From an uncultured Planctomycetaceae bacterium (GTDB taxonomy: Bacteria > Planctomycetota > Planctomycetia > Planctomycetales > Planctomycetaceae), in assembly GCA_963815195.1 (NCBI GenBank), contig CAWFGE010000020.1, forward strand, positions 64,001 to 128,000: a stretch of DNA of 64,000 nucleotides, given 5' to 3'. The position numbers were made by a program, and so were the translations under genes. Below are positions 20,598 to 64,000 of this stretch, piece by piece (positions within the stretch are counted from its first letter, which is position 1; every line of letters begins with the position of its first letter). The notes beneath the pieces are model-generated. The model ran no database searches. It was not told the DNA's origin and saw only the letters and a program-made list of their open reading frames with translations.

Positions 20598-22275
20598 TGG
20601 ACCGGCTCCGCCTGTGCCTTGTGTTTTTCAGGCGCGATTTGCGTCCTGAGCTTTTGGTTGTCTTTAATCATTTTCTCCAATTCCTTCTCGAGCGCAATCA
20701 TCTTCAATTCGCGGCCGACGACCACTTCTTCGAACTTCTCCAAGTCGAGGATTTTTTCCTGGAGTTCGGCTTTCGATTTTTCCAGGTCGCGGACCACGCG
20801 CTCGTAAGCCCGCATGTCGTGCAGAATCCCGATGGCCCCGATCACCCGCCCCTCCGGATCGCGCAGGGCCGAGGCGTTCAGGGTCGTGGGAATCACCTCG
20901 CCCGAGGCGCTTCGCGGATTGAGGCGGGCGTTTCGCGTGACGCCGCGCTCCACCACCTCGCGGAGGGCCGCGGTGAACTCGCGGGTTTCCTCGGGACTGA
21001 TGAACCGCGACAGCGACTGCTCCACGACTTCGTCCGTCCGGAAACCGAGCAAGCGCATAGACCGCGTCGTTCGCCTGGAGGATCTTGCCCTCCAGGTCGG
21101 AGACGAACACCGGGTCCGGGGCGTTCTTGATCAGGCTTTCCGCATAGGCCCGGGCTTTGTCCAACTCCCGCATGTCGCGGAGAATCCCGATCACGCCGAT
21201 CGCATGCCCCTCGGCATCGCGGAGAGCCGAGGCGTTGAGTGTCGTCGAAATCACTTCGCCCGAGGCGCTGCGGGGATTGAGGCGGGCGTTCTTGGTGACG
21301 CCCCGCTCCACCACTTCGCGGAGGGCCGCGGTGAACTCGCGGGCTTCTTCCGGACTGATGAACCGCGACAGCGACTGCTCGATGACTTCGTCCGTCCGGA
21401 AACCGAGCAACGTATAAACCGCGTCGTTGGCCTGGAGAATCTTGCCTTCCAGGTCGGAAACGAACACCGGGTCGGGGGCGTTTTTAATCAGGCTTTCCGC
21501 ATAGGCCCGGGCTTTGTCGAGTTCCCGCATGTCGCGGAGAATCCCGATCGCCCCGATCACCCGCCCGTCCACATCGCGGAGGGCCGAGGCGTTGAGGCTG
21601 GTGGGAATGATTTCGCCCGTCGCCGTGCGCGGATGCAGCACGGCGTTGCGCGTCACGCCGTGCTCGACAACCTCGCGAAGGGCGGCGGTGAACTCGCGGG
21701 TTTCCTCCGGACTGATGAACCGGGCCAGCGATTGCTCGAGCACCTCGTCCTGCCGAAAACCCAGCAGTTGGGAAACCGCATCGTTGGCCTGGAGGATTTT
21801 GCCTTCCAAGTCGGAGACGAACACCGGGTCCGGGGCATTTTTAATCAGGCTTTCCGCATACGCCCGGGCTTTGTCGAGTTCCCGCATGTCGCGGAGGATC
21901 CCGATCGCCCCGATCACCTTGCCGTCCGAGTCCCGGAGGGCCGACGCGTTTAAGCGTCGTGGGAATGATCTCCCCGGAAGCGCTTCGGGGATTGAGGCGG
22001 GTGTTGCGAATCCCGCCGCGTTCCACCACCTCGCGGAGGGCGGCGGTGAACTCGCGGGTTTCCTCCGGGCTGATGAACCGCGACAGCGACTGCTCGAGCA
22101 CTTCATCCTGCCGAAACCCCAACAGCTCGGACACCGCGTCGTTCGCCTGGAGGATTTTCCCCTCCAAGTCCGAAACGAACACCGGGTCCGGGGCGTTCGC
22201 GATGATGATGTTCGCATCCAGCGAATGTTTCGGATTCGGGTTTTGTTGAATCGCGACAGACGATTTGTGGTTCAT
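20594..22275 (-). CDS. Protein with four tandem near-identical PAS domains and a C-terminal coiled coil; frameshifts near 21955 and 21058
   Basis: 119-aa unit NAPDPVFVSDLEGKILQANDAV..IGILRDMRE repeated 4 times; tail LEKFEEVVVGRELKMIALEKE. Confidence 0.88.
20790..22200 (-). repeat. Intragenic tandem repeat, 4 x 357 nt
   Basis: Anchor gaacaccggg recurs at 21105, 21462, 21819 and 22177 (spacing 357, 357, 358). Confidence 0.93.
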
Positions 22276-27535: not shown

Positions 27536-27598
27536 GCGGCTCCTGGAAGAGTAAGGATCGTTCGAGAAATAATTGTCCGATTATCAGCAAGAACGCAC

Positions 27599-29026
27599 TA
27601 GATGTCAGTTTCGTAAATCCTTCCTCAGTTAAGCCGCCTGTCGTTTGTAGGGGCGAGGCGGGTAGAGGATTTTTTCGTAAGTTTTGGGGCGAGGGCTGAA
27701 CCAGACTCGCCCGCGTTTTTGTTGGCGCCGCGTTTGGTCGAATGGCGTGCTGCGAACGAGCGGCTCGCCAGTGTAGGTCCAACGGTAGGGATGACAATAG
27801 TGCGAGTTGTAATCATTCAAGAAAGCCAAGAGCCGGTCCTCAAACTCGGCCGCCGAAGCGAAGTCTCCTCTTTTCAGGAACCGCCGGGACAAGACGCTAA
27901 ACCACAACTCCACCTGGTTCAGCCAGGAACCGTGCTTCGGCGTGAAATGGAACACGTGTTTGTGGGACGGGTCGGTCAAGAACAAACGCCTTTGGGTTCC
28001 CGTTTTCAAGTCTTTGGGAACGAACGGCACCTCGCTCAACTCGGCCACCACGCGGCAGACATCCAGGCTCCAATGCGTGTTCAGATTATCCAGCACCCAA
28101 TCGAACCGCTGCATTTCGCGAAAGTGTGTGGCGACATGATCGATGTGTGCGGCGAAATCCTGGCTGGTGCGCGTTTGCCCGAGATTCCAAACGACCTCGC
28201 CGGTCGGTACGGCGAACGAAGCGATCAAAGCCCTCGTGCCATGACGGATGTATTCGTGCTCCCGCTTCTCCGGTTTTCCCGGCTCAAGGGGCTGCGTGGG
28301 ATATTTCCGCTGGAGAATCTGCATGCCGGTTTTCTCATCACTGCTGATAATCAACCGACCCTGCTGATAGAACGCGGGCGCTTGGACGTACAACTGGCCA
28401 ATCTCGCGAGCGATCGCATCAAAGTCCGGATCATGGCTGTTGAGCCAGTAAACGCTCTTGTGAGGCTTGAGATCCGCCTCCTCCAAAATCCGCCAGATTG
28501 TCGAACGGCTCATGGCTTCGTGATACGCATCATTGAGAATCGTGGCCGCGATGTCATTCAGGCTCCACCGCGTGGCAGGGTTGTCGTAGTCCGCTGGTTC
28601 GCTCGTCGCGATCGTCATGACATTCAACTGGTCCTCCGGGGGAAGAAGACCGAGGCCGTCCCGGTCTCGGCAGGTCTTGGAGCCCTGCGACTCCCTGCTC
28701 CAAAAACCGCCGCCGCCAAGTGCCCACGGTCTGCCGATCGCAGCCGAACTCCGCGGCGATATCCAGATTCCTGGGACGGTCCGGCTCGGCAGCCCGCAAC
28801 ACCAAGCGGGCCCGAAACACCAAAGCCTGCGGCGTCGAACCGGCTCGAACCAGCTTCTCAAGTTGCTGCCGTTGTTCATCATTCAAAACAACATCCGGGG
28901 GAAATGGGGTGGGCATGGAACCTCCTTGCTCCAAAGGACAGAAACACATGCCCGTTAAATCCCGTATTCGGCCGATTTTGTCCAGACCAACTAAAACTGA
29001 CTATGCACTTACGAAACTGACATCTA
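27599..29026 (-). mobile_element. IS630-family insertion sequence with TA duplication
   Basis: Perfect IR ctagatgtcagtttcgtaa (27598-27616) / ttacgaaactgacatctag (29009-29027); empty site CTAG. Confidence 0.93.
27629..28916 (-). CDS. IS630 transposase in two frames (shift near 28640)
   Basis: HTH ORF MPTPFPP..PRPGRP, then DDE motifs SSDEKTG, VLDNLNTH, WLNQVELWF. Confidence 0.92.
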
Positions 29027-29104
29027 GCCGTTTTTGAATGGCAAGCAGATTTTGTTATAATTATAATAAGGAGAGAGTCGGAGCGTTTTGGCAAAAATCG
29101 ACAG

Positions 29105-55391: not shown

Positions 55392-57560
55392 TTACCGCCC
55401 GTGGAAGTGGAGCAAATCGAGAAAATGTTGGGAGCCGAACAACTGCTCCCAGGGGTCGGCCCGGTGCTCCCCGCCTTCGCCGCGATCCACAATGACCGGA
55501 AGGTCCACCTCGTCGGCCACGTCGACCTCATCGTCGCCCTGGCCGGTCTGGATTTCGATCCGCTCGATCTGGCTGAATTGGATCACGAGCCCGTTGACCG
55601 TAACCTCGTTCGGAGTCACGCCGATCACGTCCTCGCCATGCGTGCCCTCGATTCGCAAAACATCGCCGCGGCCGGAACCGCCGTTGACGACGATCCCGCC
55701 GGGAAGCAAGTCGCCGGCGATGGACTCGATCGCGATGTGGTTCGGCGTCCGGTCCGAGCCGTCGAGAATCAACTGCTGGACGGTGCCCAACGATTGGCTG
55801 GCAATCACGCGGCCGTTGTGACCCTCCACGACTTGAAGTTCACCATCGGCGACCCGCACGGTCACATTGGAAGCATGCGAAGCGGCGAGATCGACATAGA
55901 GCACCGACGCGTCGAAGAACACGTTCGGCTGCAGGTCTTGGATGCCCGTGTTTCGCTCGATGACATCGGCCAGGGTTGTGCTTTCCAGTTCCGCGAGTTG
56001 TTCGCCGTGGAAGACGTTTTGATACCAGAAGCGGTCGCCGTCGCGGAGCCGCTCGAACTGGTCGGTGATGATCGTGCTGAACGTTTCGCCCATGCTGGAG
56101 CCGGGCAGGTGGTCTTCCGCCAGGCCTCCGACCCAGAGGTCGATGTCGTCCACGCTGCCGTACATCGATGCCAGCCCCTCGACGACATGCGGATCGGACG
56201 AGACGTCGGAAAAACTCGTCACCCGCGGAAGCCCGATCCATTGCCGGGTGTCGTTGTAGCTGGAAAGGCCGTGATCGCGGCCGCGCTGAATGTTGAGAGC
56301 CGCGAGGTCGAACCCGCCTGCGCCGGGAGGTCCGAACAAGAAGTTCCGCACGTCATCGACGACCTGCGTGTCGATTTCCTGGGCGATCGTGGTCGTCATC
56401 CCGCGAAGCAACGGATCGATGCCGTTGCCCGTCCCTTGGCTGGGATCGTAAATCTCACCGGGATTGAAAAACGCGTTTTGCAGGCTGAGGTTGCCCGCAT
56501 CGATCACATCCCCCTCCGCATCCCGCCGCGAGAGTTCGGACGAAAGCATGCTGTGCCCGAAGCGGTAGGCCGCGGTGGAGAACTCGTTGGCGATATCGGG
56601 ATTCACATCGGGGTCGTAGCCCTGGTAAGGGCCGATCGCGTCGAATCCCAGCAAAGCCGGCAGGTATTCGTTGTAAGTGATGGCCTGGATTTCCGCCCGC
56701 ACGATGGCGCGGGTTTGTTGAAAGATTTGCTCGTCGGTCAGGTTCGGATATTGGGCGGAAATCTCGTCGGCGATGCGGTTGTGCTCGCGCACCCAGAGCG
56801 TGTGCATCGAGGTGAGCGCCACGTTTTCGTTCGCCCGCACATCGCCCGAGAGGAACAATTGGTCCGGGGTTTGGAACGGCTGGCTGGCGTTGGGAAAAAT
56901 GATGTTCCCGCTGTTGTTGCCGTCATTGAAAGGCAGCAAATCGCCGACGCTGGTGTCCTGCATTCTCAGTCGGCCGCCTTCGTGCGATCGCAAAGCATCC
57001 GTCCGGACCGGGTCGGAACCGTAGATCGTCGAACCGTCGATGAAGGCGGTGATCTCGTTGATCTGCTGGCGGACGCCGTTGTCCATCATATAAATCGAGC
57101 GATTGAGACCGATCGTTTGCGAGCCGTCCACATCGAAATACGGATCGCCGGCGGGAACAGAAATCGGCATTGGCTCCGCGGGCGACGCGCCTTCGGTAAG
57201 GTCGATGTCGTGATCGACGAACTGCCCCCACAGCCAGAGGATGTCCGTCAAGTTGCGGTCGTTGGACTTGGGTTCGTGGGCGGTCGCCATCGCATTGCTG
57301 ACGGTCCGGGCGCTCAGACGATCCGAACCGGCCGGCATGCCCGAGTCGTCGGCATAATTCTCCGGGGCCAGCCGCAAAAGCATTTCGTCCGTGCTGCCCC
57401 ACTCCGGATGGTCGAGGTTGTTCCCCATGCCGTCGATGGCCGGGACCTCGCCCGCGAGAAAACCGGGGTTCGTCAACAGTGTACGGGGTTCACAGATTTC
57501 GACTATGGCCGGAAATGGTGGCCTTTGCCGACGGGATTTGGGGGCGCTGGTGAATCGCAT
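55392..57560 (-). CDS. Secreted heme peroxidase of the peroxidase-cyclooxygenase (animal-type) superfamily
   Basis: WGQFVDHD, GDVRANEN, REHNR, YRFGHS, IQRGRDHG; N-terminal EICEPRTLL (LEPR-XLL-like). Confidence 0.9.
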   Translation of the reverse strand: MRFTSAPKSRRQRPPFPAIVEICEPRTLLTNPGFLAGEVPAIDGMGNNLDHPEWGSTDEMLLRLAPENYADDSGMPAGSDRLSARTVSNAMATAHEPKSNDRNLTDILWLWGQFVDHDIDLTEGASPAEPMPISVPAGDPYFDVDGSQTIGLNRSIYMMDNGVRQQINEITAFIDGSTIYGSDPVRTDALRSHEGGRLRMQDTSVGDLLPFNDGNNSGNIIFPNASQPFQTPDQLFLSGDVRANENVALTSMHTLWVREHNRIADEISAQYPNLTDEQIFQQTRAIVRAEIQAITYNEYLPALLGFDAIGPYQGYDPDVNPDIANEFSTAAYRFGHSMLSSELSRRDAEGDVIDAGNLSLQNAFFNPGEIYDPSQGTGNGIDPLLRGMTTTIAQEIDTQVVDDVRNFLFGPPGAGGFDLAALNIQRGRDHGLSSYNDTRQWIGLPRVTSFSDVSSDPHVVEGLASMYGSVDDIDLWVGGLAEDHLPGSSMGETFSTIITDQFERLRDGDRFWYQNVFHGEQLAELESTTLADVIERNTGIQDLQPNVFFDASVLYVDLAASHASNVTVRVADGELQVVEGHNGRVIASQSLGTVQQLILDGSDRTPNHIAIESIAGDLLPGGIVVNGGSGRGDVLRIEGTHGEDVIGVTPNEVTVNGLVIQFSQIERIEIQTGQGDDEVDVADEVDLPVIVDRGEGGEHRADPWEQLFGSQHFLDLLHFHGR

Positions 57561-58827: not shown

Positions 58828-58844
58828 AAGCGTCGGGCAACATC

Positions 58845-58913
58845 GCAGGGCCGGGTCCGCCGGCCTTTTGTTTCTGGTGACGACGATTTCTCTCGCACCA
58901 ACCGCCGGCACAG
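58845..58913 (-). repeat. Diverged, inverted partial copy of the 146-bp repeat R2
   Basis: gcagggccgggtccgccggccttttg..acgatttctctcgcaccaa..gccggcaca aligns to the reverse complement of R2. Confidence 0.8.
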
Positions 58914-58928
58914 CATGTACGACTGCAC

Positions 58929-59403
58929 TTACTTGGTGAAGAAGCTTTTGATCTCATCGTCTCGCTCCGCCAACTCGCGCAGGCTCTCCTTATCAATTTC
59001 CAACTGCTCGAGGTTGCGGTTCAATTGTTTGATTCGCCATGAGTTTCCATCAGCCGTCGCGAGAAACAGCCCCCCTTTTCCGAGATCATACGATTGCCCG
59101 GCGATGGTCGCTGTTCCCGTTTTGCCGTCGCCGGATTTAACAGCGAACTTCAGAACCGCTCCGTCCGAGCCGACCATTTTCCCCGTGCAGGAAATGCCCT
59201 GCCGATTGCTGCTTGTGCTGCCGCCTCCTCCGTTGGGCAAGTCGCTCCAAAGCACGAAAAGTTTTCCCAGGTGATAAACGGTGCCCTGATCGAAATCGGA
59301 TGGGGAGGGATTGTTCTCGGACCAGGTGACAATGCCGCTCGGACCGCCGACGTCGGGAAGAGAAGCGTCCTCAAATCGTTGAGCCCCGCAACCGATCGCG
59401 GCG
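58929..59403 (-). pseudogene. 5'-truncated lipoprotein gene
   Basis: Frame is open from the R1 boundary (AAIGCGAQRF..LWSDLPN..FFTK*); lipobox-like AIGC is kept but start and signal peptide are missing. Confidence 0.65.
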
Positions 59404-59561
59404 GGGTGGCATGCTCATGGCTCTGCATGAGCATGCGATATGATCAACCTTGGATTACTTGGAATCGAAAGACACGCGACTTCAACCAGTGAAAACACTC
59501 GCCTTGTTGCTTCCTTGACCTTTGGAAGACATGCTCATGCAAAGCCATGAGCATGCCACCC
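59404..59561. repeat. R1: 158-bp REP doublet / MITE-like element (GGGTGGCA ends)
   Basis: 32-bp terminal IR 59404-59435 / 59530-59561 (31/32 match); each arm is itself palindromic. Confidence 0.9.
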
Positions 59562-59562
59562 G

Positions 59563-59670
59563 GCCGTCAACCCGAATGTCTTGAACCGCACGGTCCCAGA
59601 GAGCATGCGTCAACAAATCCTTGATTCAATCTCGACGGCGACCGGCAGAAGGGCTTACTCAGCACAATGA
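59563..59670 (+). pseudogene. 35-codon C-terminal gene remnant (putative toxin tip 1)
   Basis: Open from the R1 right end (AVNPNVLN..AYSAQ*); TGA overlaps the ATG of the next gene (ATGA). Confidence 0.5.
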
Positions 59671-60101
59671 CAATCCACGGATTCACATTACCCGCTCTTC
59701 TTGAGTCGCATCTGAAGTCAGGTGGCCGTAAACTGTCGGAGAGCGAACTAGCCCACCTGAAGGCTCTGTTGACTCACATCGAAAGTCCCCGCCCCAGGCT
59801 TTGGGGTTATGAACAGATCGTGTCTCAGCACAAACTCTGGGGTTCCTCTGCGGCAACACATTACCTGGGAACGGAAGGCAAGGGTTTATTGCCGGGACGG
59901 ATCGACCCGAAACGCATCTTGATTATTGGCGAGGCTGACGAGGACAGTCCGATTGCACTCGACTATCGTACCGATAATCCACGAGTCGTCTATCTTGGTG
60001 GTATCGGGCCTCACTCTGTCTGGATTGAGTTGGCGTCAAGCTACGAAGGACTGCTAGAAAAGCTCGCAGGAGTCCTTGAGAGCCACCAGGACTCACAGTG
60101 A
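59667..60101 (+). CDS. SMI1/KNR4 (SUKH)-like immunity protein
   Basis: LP..L N-terminus; IDPKRILIIGE.DEDSPIALDYR..PRVVYL; WIELASSYE; stop codon lies inside R2. Confidence 0.72.
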   Translation: MTIHGFTLPALLESHLKSGGRKLSESELAHLKALLTHIESPRPRLWGYEQIVSQHKLWGSSAATHYLGTEGKGLLPGRIDPKRILIIGEADEDSPIALDYRTDNPRVVYLGGIGPHSVWIELASSYEGLLEKLAGVLESHQDSQ

Positions 60102-60241
60102 CGTAGGGCCGGCTGTGCCGGCCTTTTCGACGAAGGGAATCATACTTATGCCCAATTGGCGGCTGGGTGTGCCGGCCATTTGGTGCGAGAAAAATCGTTG
60201 TGTCAAAAACAAAAGGCCGGCACAGCCGGCCCTACTCGGCT
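60096..60241 (+). repeat. R2 copy 1: 146-bp GTAG-REP doublet (REPIN-like)
   Basis: CAGTGAC + 25-bp perfect IR gtagggccggctgtgccggcctttt (60103-60127) / 60211-60235 + TCGGCT. Confidence 0.95.
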
Positions 60242-60499
60242 ACAAGATCCGTCATTGAAGCGGCTGCGAGAGGTGGATTCAACATTAATGGAGCGAATAA
60301 CGGAGTAAATCTGTTATTAGCCGTTCATCGTCAGGGCGCACGACATCCAAGATTTAATGCAGCGGTCATGCGGCTTATACGTAACCTCGGTAGACGCAAT
60401 TTGAGCGACGTGGAAACTGCTAGAGCCTCGCAGTCCATCGCGGATCGCCTTCGTCCAGGACTTGAGCGGTTGAATCAGACTTTGCAACCACTAAGATAA
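60242..60499 (+). pseudogene. 5'-truncated AHH (HNH-like) nuclease toxin tip
   Basis: VIEAAARGGFNINGANNGVNL..H.QG.RHPRFN..V pattern; begins at the first base after R2. Confidence 0.7.
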
Positions 60500-60545
60500 T
60501 GGTTTGGCCCTCACTTGATCTGTTGCTATATGTTTTCAGAAAGGT

Positions 60546-61139
60546 ATGTGCAGAATGAGTATGCTCAACGAGCCAGACTGGCATGCAGCTGAATCTGTCT
60601 TAATTAACGAGGCAAAAAAAACTATAGAAGATTATGTAAGTAATTATGGCAATGAAGTCTGCTCATTCTTTGCTTTCAGCACGGATTATTGTTTCGGAGA
60701 TGTAGCAATTTGTTTTGATACCCTCGATAACAGTCTGCTGTATGCAAAGCGTCACGATCGCCACGTTTTGAAAACGCGAGCATCCGTTTTTCAAACACCG
60801 AACGGTTGGTTAACGGCTCGGGACGTCCTTTTGCATTCCAAACTATGTACTTATAACCCGCAGACGGCGGATTTTAAGTACGCCACTTTTGCTTCGTTGC
60901 GACTGCCTGATTGGGAGGATTTTTTTTGCAGTGGCGAACTGCCAGAGCAGCCTGATCCAGTAGGAAATGTTATAGTGGTCTTGCATAATGTAATCGAGGA
61001 GTTGATAGCATTCCACAGCTTCGATGCGCTGAGGATGTCCGCTCCGTTCAGAGTAGGTATTGAGTTTCCAAGAGATGATTTTGGGTTGGTCGTTATGAGG
61101 TTGTTAAATTGGCCTTCCCATGAAGGTCCAAGAGTCTAG
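60546..61139 (+). CDS. Putative cognate immunity protein (DUF4303-like)
   Basis: Acidic, low-GC ORF right after the toxin tip; FAFSTDY..GDVAICFDT. Confidence 0.6.
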   Translation: MCRMSMLNEPDWHAAESVLINEAKKTIEDYVSNYGNEVCSFFAFSTDYCFGDVAICFDTLDNSLLYAKRHDRHVLKTRASVFQTPNGWLTARDVLLHSKLCTYNPQTADFKYATFASLRLPDWEDFFCSGELPEQPDPVGNVIVVLHNVIEELIAFHSFDALRMSAPFRVGIEFPRDDFGLVVMRLLNWPSHEGPRV

Positions 61140-61292
61140 CTCGTGTATGGAAGATTTCACTCGCAAAAAGCCAAGGAATACATCAAGGCTCTGACGAAAT
61201 GGCTAGGGGAAAATCCAAATGCATCACATAATGACCGCTTGGTTGCCCAAAGCCTGCTGGATGACCTCAAGGCTGCTCTTGGAGGAAATTGA
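61140..61292 (+). pseudogene. 5'-truncated toxin C-terminal tip (Rhs-type)
   Basis: VYGRFHSQKAKEY..LTKWL.ENPNAS..DR..A..L.DDLKAALG*; not in the ORF track; ends just before the next start. Confidence 0.6.
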
Positions 61293-61293
61293 C

Positions 61294-61626
61294 GTGAAAG
61301 ACAAATCTCAAGACTTCTGCGAAGAGCTTGTTCGTCGATTTGACGACCTTGCTCCAATGTTGCAGGAACATATCGAAGACAATGATGAAATCCTTCCGCA
61401 TGTATTTATGGGGGACATCACACGATATGTTCTTTCTGATGGTTTGCAGCGGCAAGAACTTGTGCGTTGTCTCGACGACGCCTTGAGGAAAGGAGGTGAG
61501 GAGATTCAGAACCTGATTGCCGTTTCCTTCGTGGAGAATCTTGAAAGTGACGAAGAATTGGAGCGTGCATTGCGAAACGTTCAGGCAGACGCAATGCGTG
61601 AAGAATGGCGTCGTCAACGTACTTAG
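61294..61626 (+). CDS. Putative cognate immunity protein (acidic, 110 aa)
   Basis: GGAGG RBS + GTG; EHIEDNDEILPHVFMGD; NLIAVSFVENL; last base of TAG is the first base of R1 copy 2. Confidence 0.72.
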   Translation: MKDKSQDFCEELVRRFDDLAPMLQEHIEDNDEILPHVFMGDITRYVLSDGLQRQELVRCLDDALRKGGEEIQNLIAVSFVENLESDEELERALRNVQADAMREEWRRQRT

Positions 61627-61712
61627 TGGCATGCTCATGGCTCTGCATGAGCATGCGATATGATCAACCTTGGATTACTTGGAATCGAAAGACACGCGAC
61701 TTCAACCAGTGA
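61626..61712 (+). repeat. R1 copy 2 (left half only), fused to R2 at CAGTGA
   Basis: Identical to 59406-59492. Confidence 0.93.
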
Positions 61713-61852
61713 CGTAGGGCCGGCTGTGCCGGCCTTTTCGTCGAAGGGAATCATACTTATGCCCAATTGGCGGCTGGGTGTGCCGGCCATTTGGTGCGAG
61801 AAAAATCGTTGTGTCAAAAACAAAAGGCCGGCACAGCCGGCCCTACTCGGCT
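61707..61852 (+). repeat. R2 copy 2
   Basis: 145/146 identical to copy 1. Confidence 0.95.
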
Positions 61853-62030
61853 TTGCCATGCTTTCAGTCATCCTTGAAGACAGTGATTCATGGAGGCGGT
61901 TATAAAGTGATCCGTGCCCGCCGTGACGAACACGCTCTTCTCAGGCACGACCACCGGATAGCCGAATGAGTCGTCCCGAACCAGACCGGCGAAGGGCTTC
62001 ACCCGCTTGCAGAGAGCGTCGTCGTTTGCG

Positions 62031-62176
62031 CAGTGACGTAGGGCCGGCTGTGCCGGCCTTTTCGACGAAGGGAATCATACTTATGCCCAATTGGCGGCTG
62101 GGTGTGCCGGCCATTTGGTGCGAGAAAAATCGTTGTGTCAAAAACAAAAGGCCGGCACAGCCGGCCCTACTCGGCT
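62031..62176 (+). repeat. R2 copy 3
   Basis: Identical to copy 1; last base overlaps the methyltransferase stop codon. Confidence 0.95.
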
Positions 62177-63287
62177 TAATGCTTCCGGCAGATGTAGTAG
62201 TTGTTCATGATGTCGTGGTCGAGCGTGCGGACGACGACGTTTCCAAATCCGGCGTCCTCAAACATCTTCAGCGCCAGCTCTTCCCCCCAGCACGTGCCCA
62301 GCCCGCACCCGGAGTGGGCCAGCGAGACCGTCATGCAGTGCATCGTCGAGATCGTGTAGAGAAACGGTGCGACCGGGTGGTCGAGATTTTTCTCGACGTG
62401 GCTTGACGAGCGAATGTCCTGCGCGAGGAACAGCCCGTCCTCCTTGAGCGCCCGGTGGATGCCGGCGAGCATCGCGTGCGGATCGATCTGGTCGTGAATC
62501 GCATCGAAAGTGAAGATCACATCGAAGCGCTGCTCGTCATCGAGCTTCGCCGCGTCGCGGATCTCAAAGCGAACGTTGGCCAGCCCGCGCCGCTTCGCCT
62601 CGGCATTGGCCCATTCGATCGCCTCCTGGGAGAAGTCATAACCCACGAAACGGGACTGGGGAAAACGCTCTGCCAAGTGCATCAGTGCCAAACCTCGGCC
62701 GCAGCCGACGTCGACCGCCTCAATGCCCCGTTCGAGCGACTCGACCAGCCCTTCCACCAGCGGCAGGATGTGGTCATCGAGCGCCGCCACCACCGTTTGG
62801 AACGACTCTTCGGCCATGATCTCGTGAAACCGATCGAACTTCTCGTAAGGCACGCCGCCGCCGTTGTGGAAGCAGTCGAGCACGTGGTCTTCGATCTTCC
62901 CGAACATCGACATGAATTGCATGACACCCGCCAGGTTGTTGGGCGCCGCTTCGCGGGTCAGCCAGGCGGCGTGCTCGGCCGGCAAGTGGTAGCTGCGCGT
63001 GGCCGGGTCGTAGTCGATCACACGGCCGGTGACCAGGGCTCCCAGCCATTCGCGGACGTACGCGCTCGTCGAGCCCCGCCTCGTCGGCAATCTCGTGCGT
63101 GGTGGCGGGGCGATTCAGCCGCTTCAGCGTATCGAGCAGCCCGGTGCGGTGGCCGATGCTGAGCATGAACGTGAGCGAGGCCTCGTTGAGCATGCCGACC
63201 ACGCGCTCGCCAAACGCTTCGTGCCGTGCGGCGTCGAATTCGGCGGTTTCGGTGGCGGAAGAAGTGGCGGAGGTGAGGCTGAGACAT
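62176..63287 (-). CDS. Winged-helix + class I SAM methyltransferase (Rv2258c-like); frameshifts near 63283 and 63070
   Basis: SIGHRTGL, YVREWL, GGGVPY, DVGCGRG, FDAIHD, YTISTMHCMTVSLA. Confidence 0.88.
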
Positions 63288-63407
63288 GGAGATTTCCTTC
63301 CGGTTCTTAAAATTTCGCGCTACAATCAACCGGCGGTTCTGAGGCCGCCGCATCCGGTGCATTGACGCGATGCGGTAAGATTACGGCCGGTTGCGGGAGA
63401 TAGACAA

Positions 63408-63443
63408 TTGACTTGGGGTCAAGTTCGGTTGACTTGTGGTCAA
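63408..63443. promoter_or_regulatory. Tandem palindromic operator TTGAC-N5-GTCAA x2 (probable TetR sites)
   Basis: 63408-63422 and 63429-63443, 21 bp apart, between divergent methyltransferase and tetR genes. Confidence 0.75.
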
Positions 63444-63481
63444 GTCCACGGACCCCCCATTAATCTCAGGGAAGTTTTCTC

Positions 63482-64000
63482 ATGCCAGCACTCTCAACAC
63501 GCGAAAAGCTCATCCAAGCCGGACATGAAATCTTCTATCGCGAGGGATTTCTGACGGTCGGGCTCGATCGCCTGCTCAACGAAGTCGGCTGCTCGAAGCA
63601 GACCTTTTACAACCACTTTGAGAGCAAAGACGATCTGATCGTCGCCGTGATCGACGAACATCACCGCTGGTGGAGTCGCGAACTTCGCGACCGCATCCAG
63701 CGGGCCGCCGGCCCCGATCCCCGCGGGCAGATTCTGGCGATGTTCGATGTCATCGAGGAAATCATGCATGAGCCGGAGTATCGCGGCTGCATCTACATCA
63801 ATGCCGCGGTCGAGTTCCCCCAACCGCACCACCCGGCCCATCAGTCGGCTCGCAAGGCAAAAGCCGACGCCATTTCGCTGCTTGAGGATCTCGCCGAGCG
63901 GGCGGGCGCATCGGATCCGCTGGCGTTGGCCCAGGAGATCGACATGATCATCGAGGGCGCACTCATTACCCACCAAATCTTCCCGGATTGCGACGTCTGC
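63482..64000 (+). CDS. TetR/AcrR-family regulator (runs off window end)
   Basis: Read directly from sequence: MPALSTREKLIQAG..GLDRLLNEVGCSKQTFYNHFESKDDL; GCIYIN. Confidence 0.92.
   Translation, partial: MPALSTREKLIQAGHEIFYREGFLTVGLDRLLNEVGCSKQTFYNHFESKDDLIVAVIDEHHRWWSRELRDRIQRAAGPDPRGQILAMFDVIEEIMHEPEYRGCIYINAAVEFPQPHHPAHQSARKAKADAISLLEDLAERAGASDPLALAQEIDMIIEGALITHQIFPDCDVC

Follow-up and report, generated by a model that had tools for sequence, protein, structure and literature searches.

How does a row of toxin fragments, each lying before an intact immunity-type gene, come to be arranged between palindromic repeats? The question is raised by positions 58845-62176 of a 64,000-nucleotide stretch (hereafter, the window) from an uncultured Planctomycetaceae bacterium, whose genome, G000, comprises 8.87 Mb in 25 contigs with a GC content of about 60% (the window is G000:C20:64001-128000). 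Its genes and their nearest named homologs likewise point to a planctomycete. The repeats are doublets of repetitive extragenic palindromes (REPs). Our analysis favours, with some confidence, the view that the array is a mosaic of unrelated fragments, linked through the outer ends of doublets from two REP families, probably by REP-associated tyrosine transposases (RAYTs) acting in trans. Splicing and duplication of foreign fragments by RAYTs, with immunity genes as frequent survivors, is likely and is the best reading of the genome comparisons described below.

Joints at REP ends

Two REP families border the array: A, of the R2 type, with a GTAG foot, and B, of the R1 type, with a GTGG foot. 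Family L also has a GTAG foot. For each of 231 oriented REPs, the adjoining 400 nt on the outer side were compared by BLAST with the same genome, and donors were accepted at 90% identity or more. Donors were found for 30 of the 231 flanks; six that were internal to REPs were dropped and three rows of family G were set apart, leaving 21 informative joints. All evidence on joints is of this kind, namely genome comparison.

Sequence sharing with the donor ended at the family dinucleotide in 19 of the 21 joints (A, 6/7; L, 4/5; B, 9/9), a precision that agrees with the proposal, made in a sequence-only reading of this DNA, that REP doublet ends act as recombination points. Joints of the two GTAG families fell at AG in 10 of 12 donors, and those of family B at CG in nine of nine. 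AG is CT on the opposite strand, and two papers describe cleavage between C and T by the TnpA-REP of Escherichia coli and Stenotrophomonas (PMC8266576, PMC3333891); the AG joints can thus be viewed as a genomic footprint of the TnpA-REP site. Both dinucleotides keep their place beside the repeat: with loci of relatives included, AG stands at -6/-5 (90/88% of 42 A REPs) and CG at -7/-6 (86/86% of 44 B REPs). AG lies within -8..-3 in 40/42 REPs of G000 and in 37/38 and 12/14 REPs of two relatives of the same genus (G001 and G003), versus a background of 22%.

On the far side of the REP, the donor did not continue within 700 nt in 19 of the 21 cases, the other two being tandem duplicates. Because the donor does not resume beyond the REP, the joints are one-ended and are not later insertions. 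Accordingly, not one of the 21 joints was a simple insertion of a doublet into an intact site, and the R1- and R2-type families are present at none of 41 native toxin loci, so that simple insertion of the repeats into intact cargo, which would have spoken against the sequence-only reading, does not account for the array. A few short doublets of relatives do lie between conserved genes, at sites that are unreadable at 73-79% identity. One might still suppose that the repeats were passive, having inserted into an existing variable region that host recombination between copies then rearranged. Copies of R2 are 98-100% identical and the genus is highly rearranged, as this supposition would have it; however, recombination between copies cannot create new ends that fall on one set dinucleotide in donors unrelated to each other, and simple insertions were not found. 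We consider it very improbable.

Eight of the 21 donors are located 0.3-6.5 kb away and are 90-100% identical, the half R1 of the array among them. Such nearby, near-identical donors cannot be explained by deletion alone. In locus L027 (G000:C15:624-628k), the 5' part of an ABC-transporter gene next door is present a second time, with 90-91% identity, and this copy ends at the CG of a family-B REP; in L024 (G000:C15:248.5-253k), tandem ankyrin genes are parted by R2 copies, and the joints between paralogs lie at R2 ends.

REP families and their RAYTs

The genome holds at least 20 families of hairpin repeats, with tens to over 200 copies each. The R2 hairpin is supported on both strands (z -6.7 and -7.5, with 0/200 shuffles as good), and R2 has 15 near-full copies with 97.8-100% identity; the R1 hairpin has 48 matches. 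A GTAG-type foot with a hairpin, inverted doublets and many copies are features of REP/REPIN-RAYT systems (REPINs being REP doublets that form hairpins), and all of them are present here.

The sequence-only reading had associated such repeats with RAYTs, and a cognate, intact-looking RAYT flanked by the same REP was sought and found for both families. Six matches to the Y1 transposase occur in the genome. Using profile NF047646 with a cut-off of 80 bits, the family-A RAYT gene (C12:908730-909341, also delimited as C12:908693-909337), which lies between inverted R2-type REPs, scored 163.6 bits; its motifs DHLH, WE and YINYNP are those of subclass 2.2, to which E. coli TnpA-REP belongs. Family-B RAYTs are found at C13:63122-63870 and C11:44.1-45.1k. 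The C11 RAYT (C11:44433-45059) adjoins an R1-type doublet and scored 99.3 bits; R1 shares 84% identity with this neighbouring doublet (C11:44.4-45.1k).

The left arm of R2 matches the beginning of the REP-RAYT-REP unit, start codon included, with 82% identity over 61 nt, and the rightmost 26 nt of R2 agree fully with the end of that unit. Since its ends match both ends of the RAYT unit, R2 is, judged from these alignments, an internally deleted REPtron (a gutted REP-RAYT-REP unit). The neighbours of the A REPtron differ in G000, in G001 (two copies 2 kb apart) and in G003, albeit in a genus whose gene order changes every few kb. At L062:7338-10601 in G001, two REP-RAYT-REP units form a direct repeat around ~2 kb, like a composite transposon.

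Layout of the array

The order and coordinates of elements given in the sequence-only reading held on re-analysis. Left to right, the features are as follows:

58844-58912, minus strand: degenerate inverted arm of R2 (GTAG), 82% identical to R2 over 67 nt, directly after the stop of a TIM-barrel gene
58929-59398, minus strand: start-less gene remnant of 155 codons, cut at the CG end of R1
59399-59566: R1, a GTGG-foot REP doublet (family B) with CG at both ends
59567-59670, plus strand: tip1, the last 33 codons of a toxin, with a C-terminal motif match in locus L202
59667-60101, plus strand: SMI1/KNR4 (SUKH) immunity-type gene, full length, assigned from a weak Pfam match and homologs
60097-60241: R2 copy 1, a GTAG REP doublet (family A) with AG...CT ends
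60242-60499, plus strand: AHH tip, the C-terminal 85 codons of an RHS-borne nuclease toxin, beginning at the CT end of R2
60561-61139, plus strand: second immunity-type gene, cognate to the AHH toxin by native gene context, with a DUF4303-like lead
61140-61292, plus strand: tip3, the second half of a toxin domain of ~90 aa, assigned from homologs, with no repeat at its 5' end
61294-61626, plus strand: third immunity-type gene, DUF7674, the partner of tip3 (Pfam E 6e-12 and native context)
61626-61712, plus strand: half R1, 100% identical to R1, duplicating 59406-59492 and cut by R2 at AG
61708-61852: R2 copy 2, 99% identical
61853-62031, minus strand: 178-bp piece that may represent the 3' terminus of an unnamed gene, GC 0.57
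62032-62176: R2 copy 3, with a CT end that overlaps a methyltransferase stop
62176-64000: methyltransferase and TetR genes, followed by family-G REPs outside the window

All six R2 ends in the window are AG/CT and both R1 ends are CG. R1 and R2 are the sole full doublets of the array, and the boundary between the second immunity gene and tip3 carries no repeat. An AGCT at this boundary was considered as the scar of an excised R2, which the native sequences do not bear out. The stop codon of the SMI1 gene lies in an R2 end; R2 as a regular supplier of stop codons is, however, not general. The low GC content claimed for the cargo was borne out: positions 60242-61626 (1385 bp) have a GC of 0.463, versus 0.598 for the window, and a value as low occurs in 0.13% of 12,630 genome windows of equal size. 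Tip1 with SMI1 (GC 0.54) and the 178-bp piece are not strongly low in GC.

A private variant of half R1 occurs at two places in the genome, half R1 itself and 59406-59492, and by this evidence half R1 is a local duplicate of part of R1. A likely history is that the segment R1-tip1-SMI1 was first joined to R2-AHH-immunity-tip3-immunity; a duplication of 2.2 kb from the R1 foot would then have followed, and joints at R2 ends would have removed most of the second copy.

The assembly at the 146-bp repeats might be suspected. Contigs from runs X1-X4, which belong to one study and possibly to the source sample, bridge three joints with no differing letters: the second immunity gene to tip3 (60491-61503), the third immunity gene to half R1 (61506-61675), and R2 to the 178-bp piece (61769-61919). 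No X1-X4 contig was found to cover a full R2 copy together with unique sequence to its left and right, a point in favour of a misassembly in the order of segments across R2 copies. A misjoin would, however, alter the order and not the joints, and the joint signatures recur in three other genomes. We find a misassembly hardly credible.

Cargo: toxin tips and immunity-type genes

By Pfam alone the cargo is weakly recognized, with E values of 8e-5 for SMI1_KNR4 and 5e-4 for AHH, both under the cut-off, and only DUF7674 stands out; its identity is nevertheless clear from homologs and native context, which confirm the toxin/immunity assignment of the sequence-only reading. As that reading also noted, toxin pieces lack their 5' ends while immunity genes are intact and co-oriented: three of three tips are C-terminal stubs before a cognate gene.

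The AHH tip is 67-72% identical to the C-termini of eight longer proteins, including RHS proteins of 1155 and 1439 aa, and begins just past the conserved HH motif, which is absent. A homolog of the second immunity gene, with 50-55% identity, follows the AHH toxin in four of the five closest native loci (the fifth ends at a contig end) and in 0/15 more distant AHH loci. The DUF4303-like lead for this gene comes from an atlas score of 0.93 with low recognition. A direct metagenome scan with the gene gave no match; the alignment of the AHH tip did retrieve loci. Tip3 is 60-84% identical to 19 longer proteins (HINT, RHS and haemagglutinin types) that carry the domain at their ends, and in 16 of these 19 native loci a DUF7674 gene directly follows the toxin. 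The tip1 motif forms the last 33 residues of a protein directly before an SMI1 homolog in L202, where YD-type repeats were seen by eye upstream of the tip1-like end. The SMI1 gene matches 58 other proteins, most of 133-138 aa, at up to 88%; its relatives were found in 2 of 400 genomes of the class.

All three modules consist of the C-terminal stub of a polymorphic toxin and a cognate immunity-type partner, whose immunity role is read from context. The tips themselves are incomplete: AHH without its HH motif, tip3 without half its domain, and tip1 reduced to 33 codons. With an incomplete toxin domain and no homology anchor, they cannot serve as replacement tips. The loss of toxin 5' ends follows from cuts that fall inside genes and gives no sign of design.

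Donor toxins for the array were not found in its own genome, which does have native HINT and Rhs toxin loci, tandem modules included. No match to PT-HINT or the Rhs core was found in or near the window, and none of the 36 tyrosine recombinase matches of the genome lies within ~95 kb of the array, the nearest PF00589 matches on C20 being ~96 and ~104 kb away; the earlier statement that neither a full-length Rhs/CDI (contact-dependent inhibition) gene nor an integrase is present thus stands.

Capture or erosion

Comparisons with G001-G003, which are relatives of the same genus, and with other genera (G015 and G149) bear on whether DNA was captured. Synteny with G001-G003 breaks every 2-6 kb, often at repeats, and at the array homology ends at the stop of the TIM-barrel gene. 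The cargo was not found in G001-G003, a weak negative since seven candidates per genome were scored. Forty REP loci of these genomes, picked by eye, are the same kind of mosaics; low-GC flanks mark 11/31 and 7/11 of the A sites. In G002, a REP doublet and an Imm51 gene stand between a pair of conserved genes whose spacing is 85 bp in G000 and 98 bp in G003; from this alignment, G002 gained the doublet and Imm51 at a site that is empty in the other two. In L077, G001 has a doublet-cargo-doublet arrangement where G000 has other REPs and other cargo. The idea that strains differ by gain or loss of cassettes at repeat ends is thus supported by the gain in G002; the window locus itself merely loses synteny.

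Erosion without capture would be another way to produce such an array. A foreign toxin island would have arrived by other means, REPs would have settled in it, and deletions and duplications at REP ends would have compacted it; REPs would border foreign DNA since only there are deletions tolerated. Insertion sequence (IS) and RAYT genes do figure among the flanks cut at AG/CG, which is what deletions next to REPs would produce. Two of the modules lie in a single segment that no repeat divides, half R1 was duplicated locally, and G000 has native Rhs/HINT loci in which modules stand in tandem. Against this stand the single gene gained with its doublet between conserved neighbours in G002, the differing REPs and cargo at L077, one local donor whose 90-91% identity suggests incoming DNA, and the fact that the closest relatives of the cargo genes are in different organisms with no donors in the genome itself. 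We regard erosion alone as unlikely; the gain in G002 and the 90-91% donor lead us to favour capture of foreign DNA.

Cargo around REPs genome-wide

Gene calls around REPs were made by a simple script. Low-GC flanks are frequent at REPs of six families of G000 (A, 14/27; B, 9/28; G, 17/52; K, 3/13; L, 14/24; O, 6/23), versus 3.3% of 3183 intergenic control sites. Values were 0-6% in eleven other hairpin families, 2/19 in P and 6/66 in R, and two IS-derived motifs were uninformative. The families with low-GC flanks form 40 multi-REP mosaics in G000, at least six of which hold toxin/immunity genes supported by hidden Markov models. L026 (G000:C15:545.0-548.5k) is another array of this kind, with a K REP, R2, an HNH-like tip (by eye), SUKH and an R1-type doublet, and then an Rhs frame of 1080 codons. 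L029 (G000:C20:37.6-45.1k) combines R2 with a tip that looks HINT-like by eye, MafI, DUF4274 and several other small genes; its identity to G001 ends at the R2 end.

A dedicated, integron-like defence array, with REPINs resembling attC sites and a RAYT that selectively stockpiles and shuffles expressed immunity genes, is a further reading, close to the proposal of the sequence-only reading. In its favour, the three intact genes between R1 and half R1 are all cognate immunity-type genes and co-oriented; toxin/immunity genes made up 7/66 low-GC genes near REPs vs 2/93 in control islands (p=0.034), or 9/66 vs 4/93 with looser labels (p=0.042); and the 64 genes near REPs of the relatives include SMI1 twice, HINT twice and Imm51. 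Yet the sets covered 66 of 74 eligible REP-near genes and 93 of 398 eligible controls, taken from multi-gene islands only, and genes cluster by locus, so that the test overstates the enrichment. Most cargo is unnamed or of other kinds: ankyrin, sulfatase-modifier and nucleotidyltransferase genes, IS and RAYT fragments, and pieces of host genes. Hence the expected enrichment of immunity genes beside the repeats is there in modest form, and the cargo is mixed rather than immunity-specific. Segments are fragments and not one-gene cassettes; a promoter scan of the array gave one site, below the shuffle mean, and no plus-strand promoter consensus. The pattern is also weak or absent in the two other genera. 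The R2 hairpin is found in 23 of 150 genomes of the family, and the idea that the REP family implies cargo everywhere was ruled out by counts of low-GC flanks of 0/21 in G015 and 3/22 in G149 (where 30 of 45 exact matches were examined). Given mixed cargo, modest enrichment, segments that do not hold one gene per repeat, and local duplication and deletion, the immunity-specific device was not upheld, and we deem it quite improbable.

A broader proposition may be advanced tentatively, although we doubt it: in this planctomycete genus, RAYTs and REPs might form a distributed, integrase-free device for gene capture, in which mobile REPtrons and gutted doublets would splice in environmental DNA at ~40 sites and selection would keep immunity genes as a renewable defence library.

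A possible mechanism

RAYT-driven splicing, the reading that we prefer, could proceed as follows. The sequences show the repeats, the RAYT genes, the sites of the joints, what the cargo is and which pieces are duplicated locally; we infer the enzyme activity, the direction of events, where the donor DNA came from and any benefit. A RAYT (TnpA-REP, an HUH nuclease) acting in trans would bind the single-stranded REP hairpin and nick the dinucleotide just beyond the doublet, CT for R2 and CG for R1. A matching dinucleotide would be cut in another strand and the ends joined, one end at a time. Depending on the event, a foreign or neighbouring fragment would be added, adjacent DNA would be deleted, or a circle would re-enter as a local duplication. 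Cuts would fall inside genes, leaving the first gene of a fragment without its 5' end and short downstream genes whole, which is expected of any fragment cut at a dinucleotide. Splicing is not specific to toxin-immunity modules; these are probably frequent cargo owing to their small size, their abundance in accessory DNA, the harmlessness of a toxin that has been cut and, possibly, a protective effect.

Several observations weigh against this reading. Joints of family G fit CG in 0/3 cases, two of the nine family-B donor rows share one donor, and the AG/CG consensus could in part be REP sequence itself. CG is not a published TnpA-REP site in the literature examined. In the array, the joints between the second immunity gene and tip3 and between the third immunity gene and half R1 are not standard REP ends. 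G001-G003 show no empty or differently filled form of the array locus, and at the Imm51 site G001 carries a different insert that lacks these REP families. The same REP has few low-GC flanks in G015 and G149. The genus is rearranged every few kb in any case, and no RAYT activity, circle or read-level joint was seen.

Relation to known systems

The array resembles REPs, bacterial interspersed mosaic elements and REPIN-RAYT systems in its inverted doublets with a GTAG foot, in the subclass 2.2 RAYT flanked by them and in its CT joints. Unlike in those systems, doublets are not simple insertions and each end joins different DNA; several families interleave around cargo of 0.4-3 kb, R2 is an internal deletion of a REPtron, the neighbours of the A REPtron vary across G000, G001 and G003, and family B joins at CG. 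Integrons share with the array foreign, co-oriented genes punctuated by repeats and single-strand hairpin sites. They differ in that no IntI tyrosine recombinase with an attI lies next to the array, cargo is cut inside genes, and the HUH nuclease is encoded elsewhere; the segments, 178-1385 bp in length, start within genes, and each contains 0-2 complete ones.

Like orphan modules of Rhs/CDI/HINT systems and polyimmunity loci (PMC3482391), the array has toxin C-termini followed by cognate immunity genes, in tandem; unlike them, it lacks a full-length toxin upstream, and tips are cut inside the domain with no anchor. The rAID-1 clusters of Bacteroidales (10.1101/471110) likewise consist of co-oriented, low-GC orphan immunity genes with intergenic repeats; here, in contrast, no XerD-like recombinase lies close by, REP doublets form the spacers, the cargo also comprises toxin stubs and fragments unrelated to immunity, and arrays are small and scattered. 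One-ended capture by IS91/ISCR (PMC3333891) and insertion with long target duplication (PMC2853133) have in common with the array HUH chemistry, one-ended joints and the duplication of neighbouring DNA; the ends of the array are, however, REP doublets, and no oriIS, terIS or IS91-type transposase was seen, none having been searched for. By the features tested, the parts belong to the REP/RAYT family, and the array is not an integron, a rAID-1 cluster or an ordinary orphan array.

From in vitro data, Ton-Hoang et al. (2012) proposed circles, rolling amplification and the sequestering of flanking genes or fragments (PMC3333891); Supplementary Figure S7 of that paper, on captured genes, may bear on novelty. 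REPtrons are said not to move as a unit (PMC3333891, PMC8266576, PMC6006769, PMC3733652, PMC5581495), and circles from E. coli REPs were not found (10.1101/2024.07.17.603846). The accessible part of 10.64898/2026.07.13.738213 makes no mention of REPINs. No paper on REP-bounded toxin/immunity arrays was found in a literature search that covered few subscription papers and no supplements.

What role RAYTs play in cells, and for what reason hosts retain them, has yet to be settled, and the cut-and-join chemistry is known only in vitro. The joints described here offer a genome-wide footprint that matches RAYT chemistry to the base, and for a GTGG family they point to CG as a second site; the enzymes and substrates on which this could be tested directly can now be named. 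If capture is true, genes could be acquired at REP ends, and orphan immunity genes would have an origin independent of integrons and Xer recombinases. If the distributed device proved true, RAYTs would have a function in vivo, and orphan immunity could also arise through HUH enzymes.

Flanking genes and other features of the window

The left gene remnant (58929-59398) has a paralog on C21 (37.5% over 80 aa) and no match in Pfam or in the atlas; lipoprotein is a tentative label, based on a lipobox-like IGC at the cut end. No other copy of the 178-bp piece was found in the genome. The methyltransferase gene (62176-63226, minus strand) has a frameshift near 63070, either real or a sequencing error. 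Together with the TetR gene, it is 72-76% identical in G006 and was not found in G001-G003. The mosaic probably extends rightwards across both genes to a third REP family beyond the window.

Elsewhere in the window, four to five tandem coding repeats of 357-358 bp each, with 62-83% identity, occupy 20696-22217. Inverted repeats of 33 nt, spaced 1364 nt apart, delimit what is probably an insertion sequence at 27598-29027. A protein of 722 aa encoded at 55392-57560 (minus strand) is heme peroxidase-like by eye.

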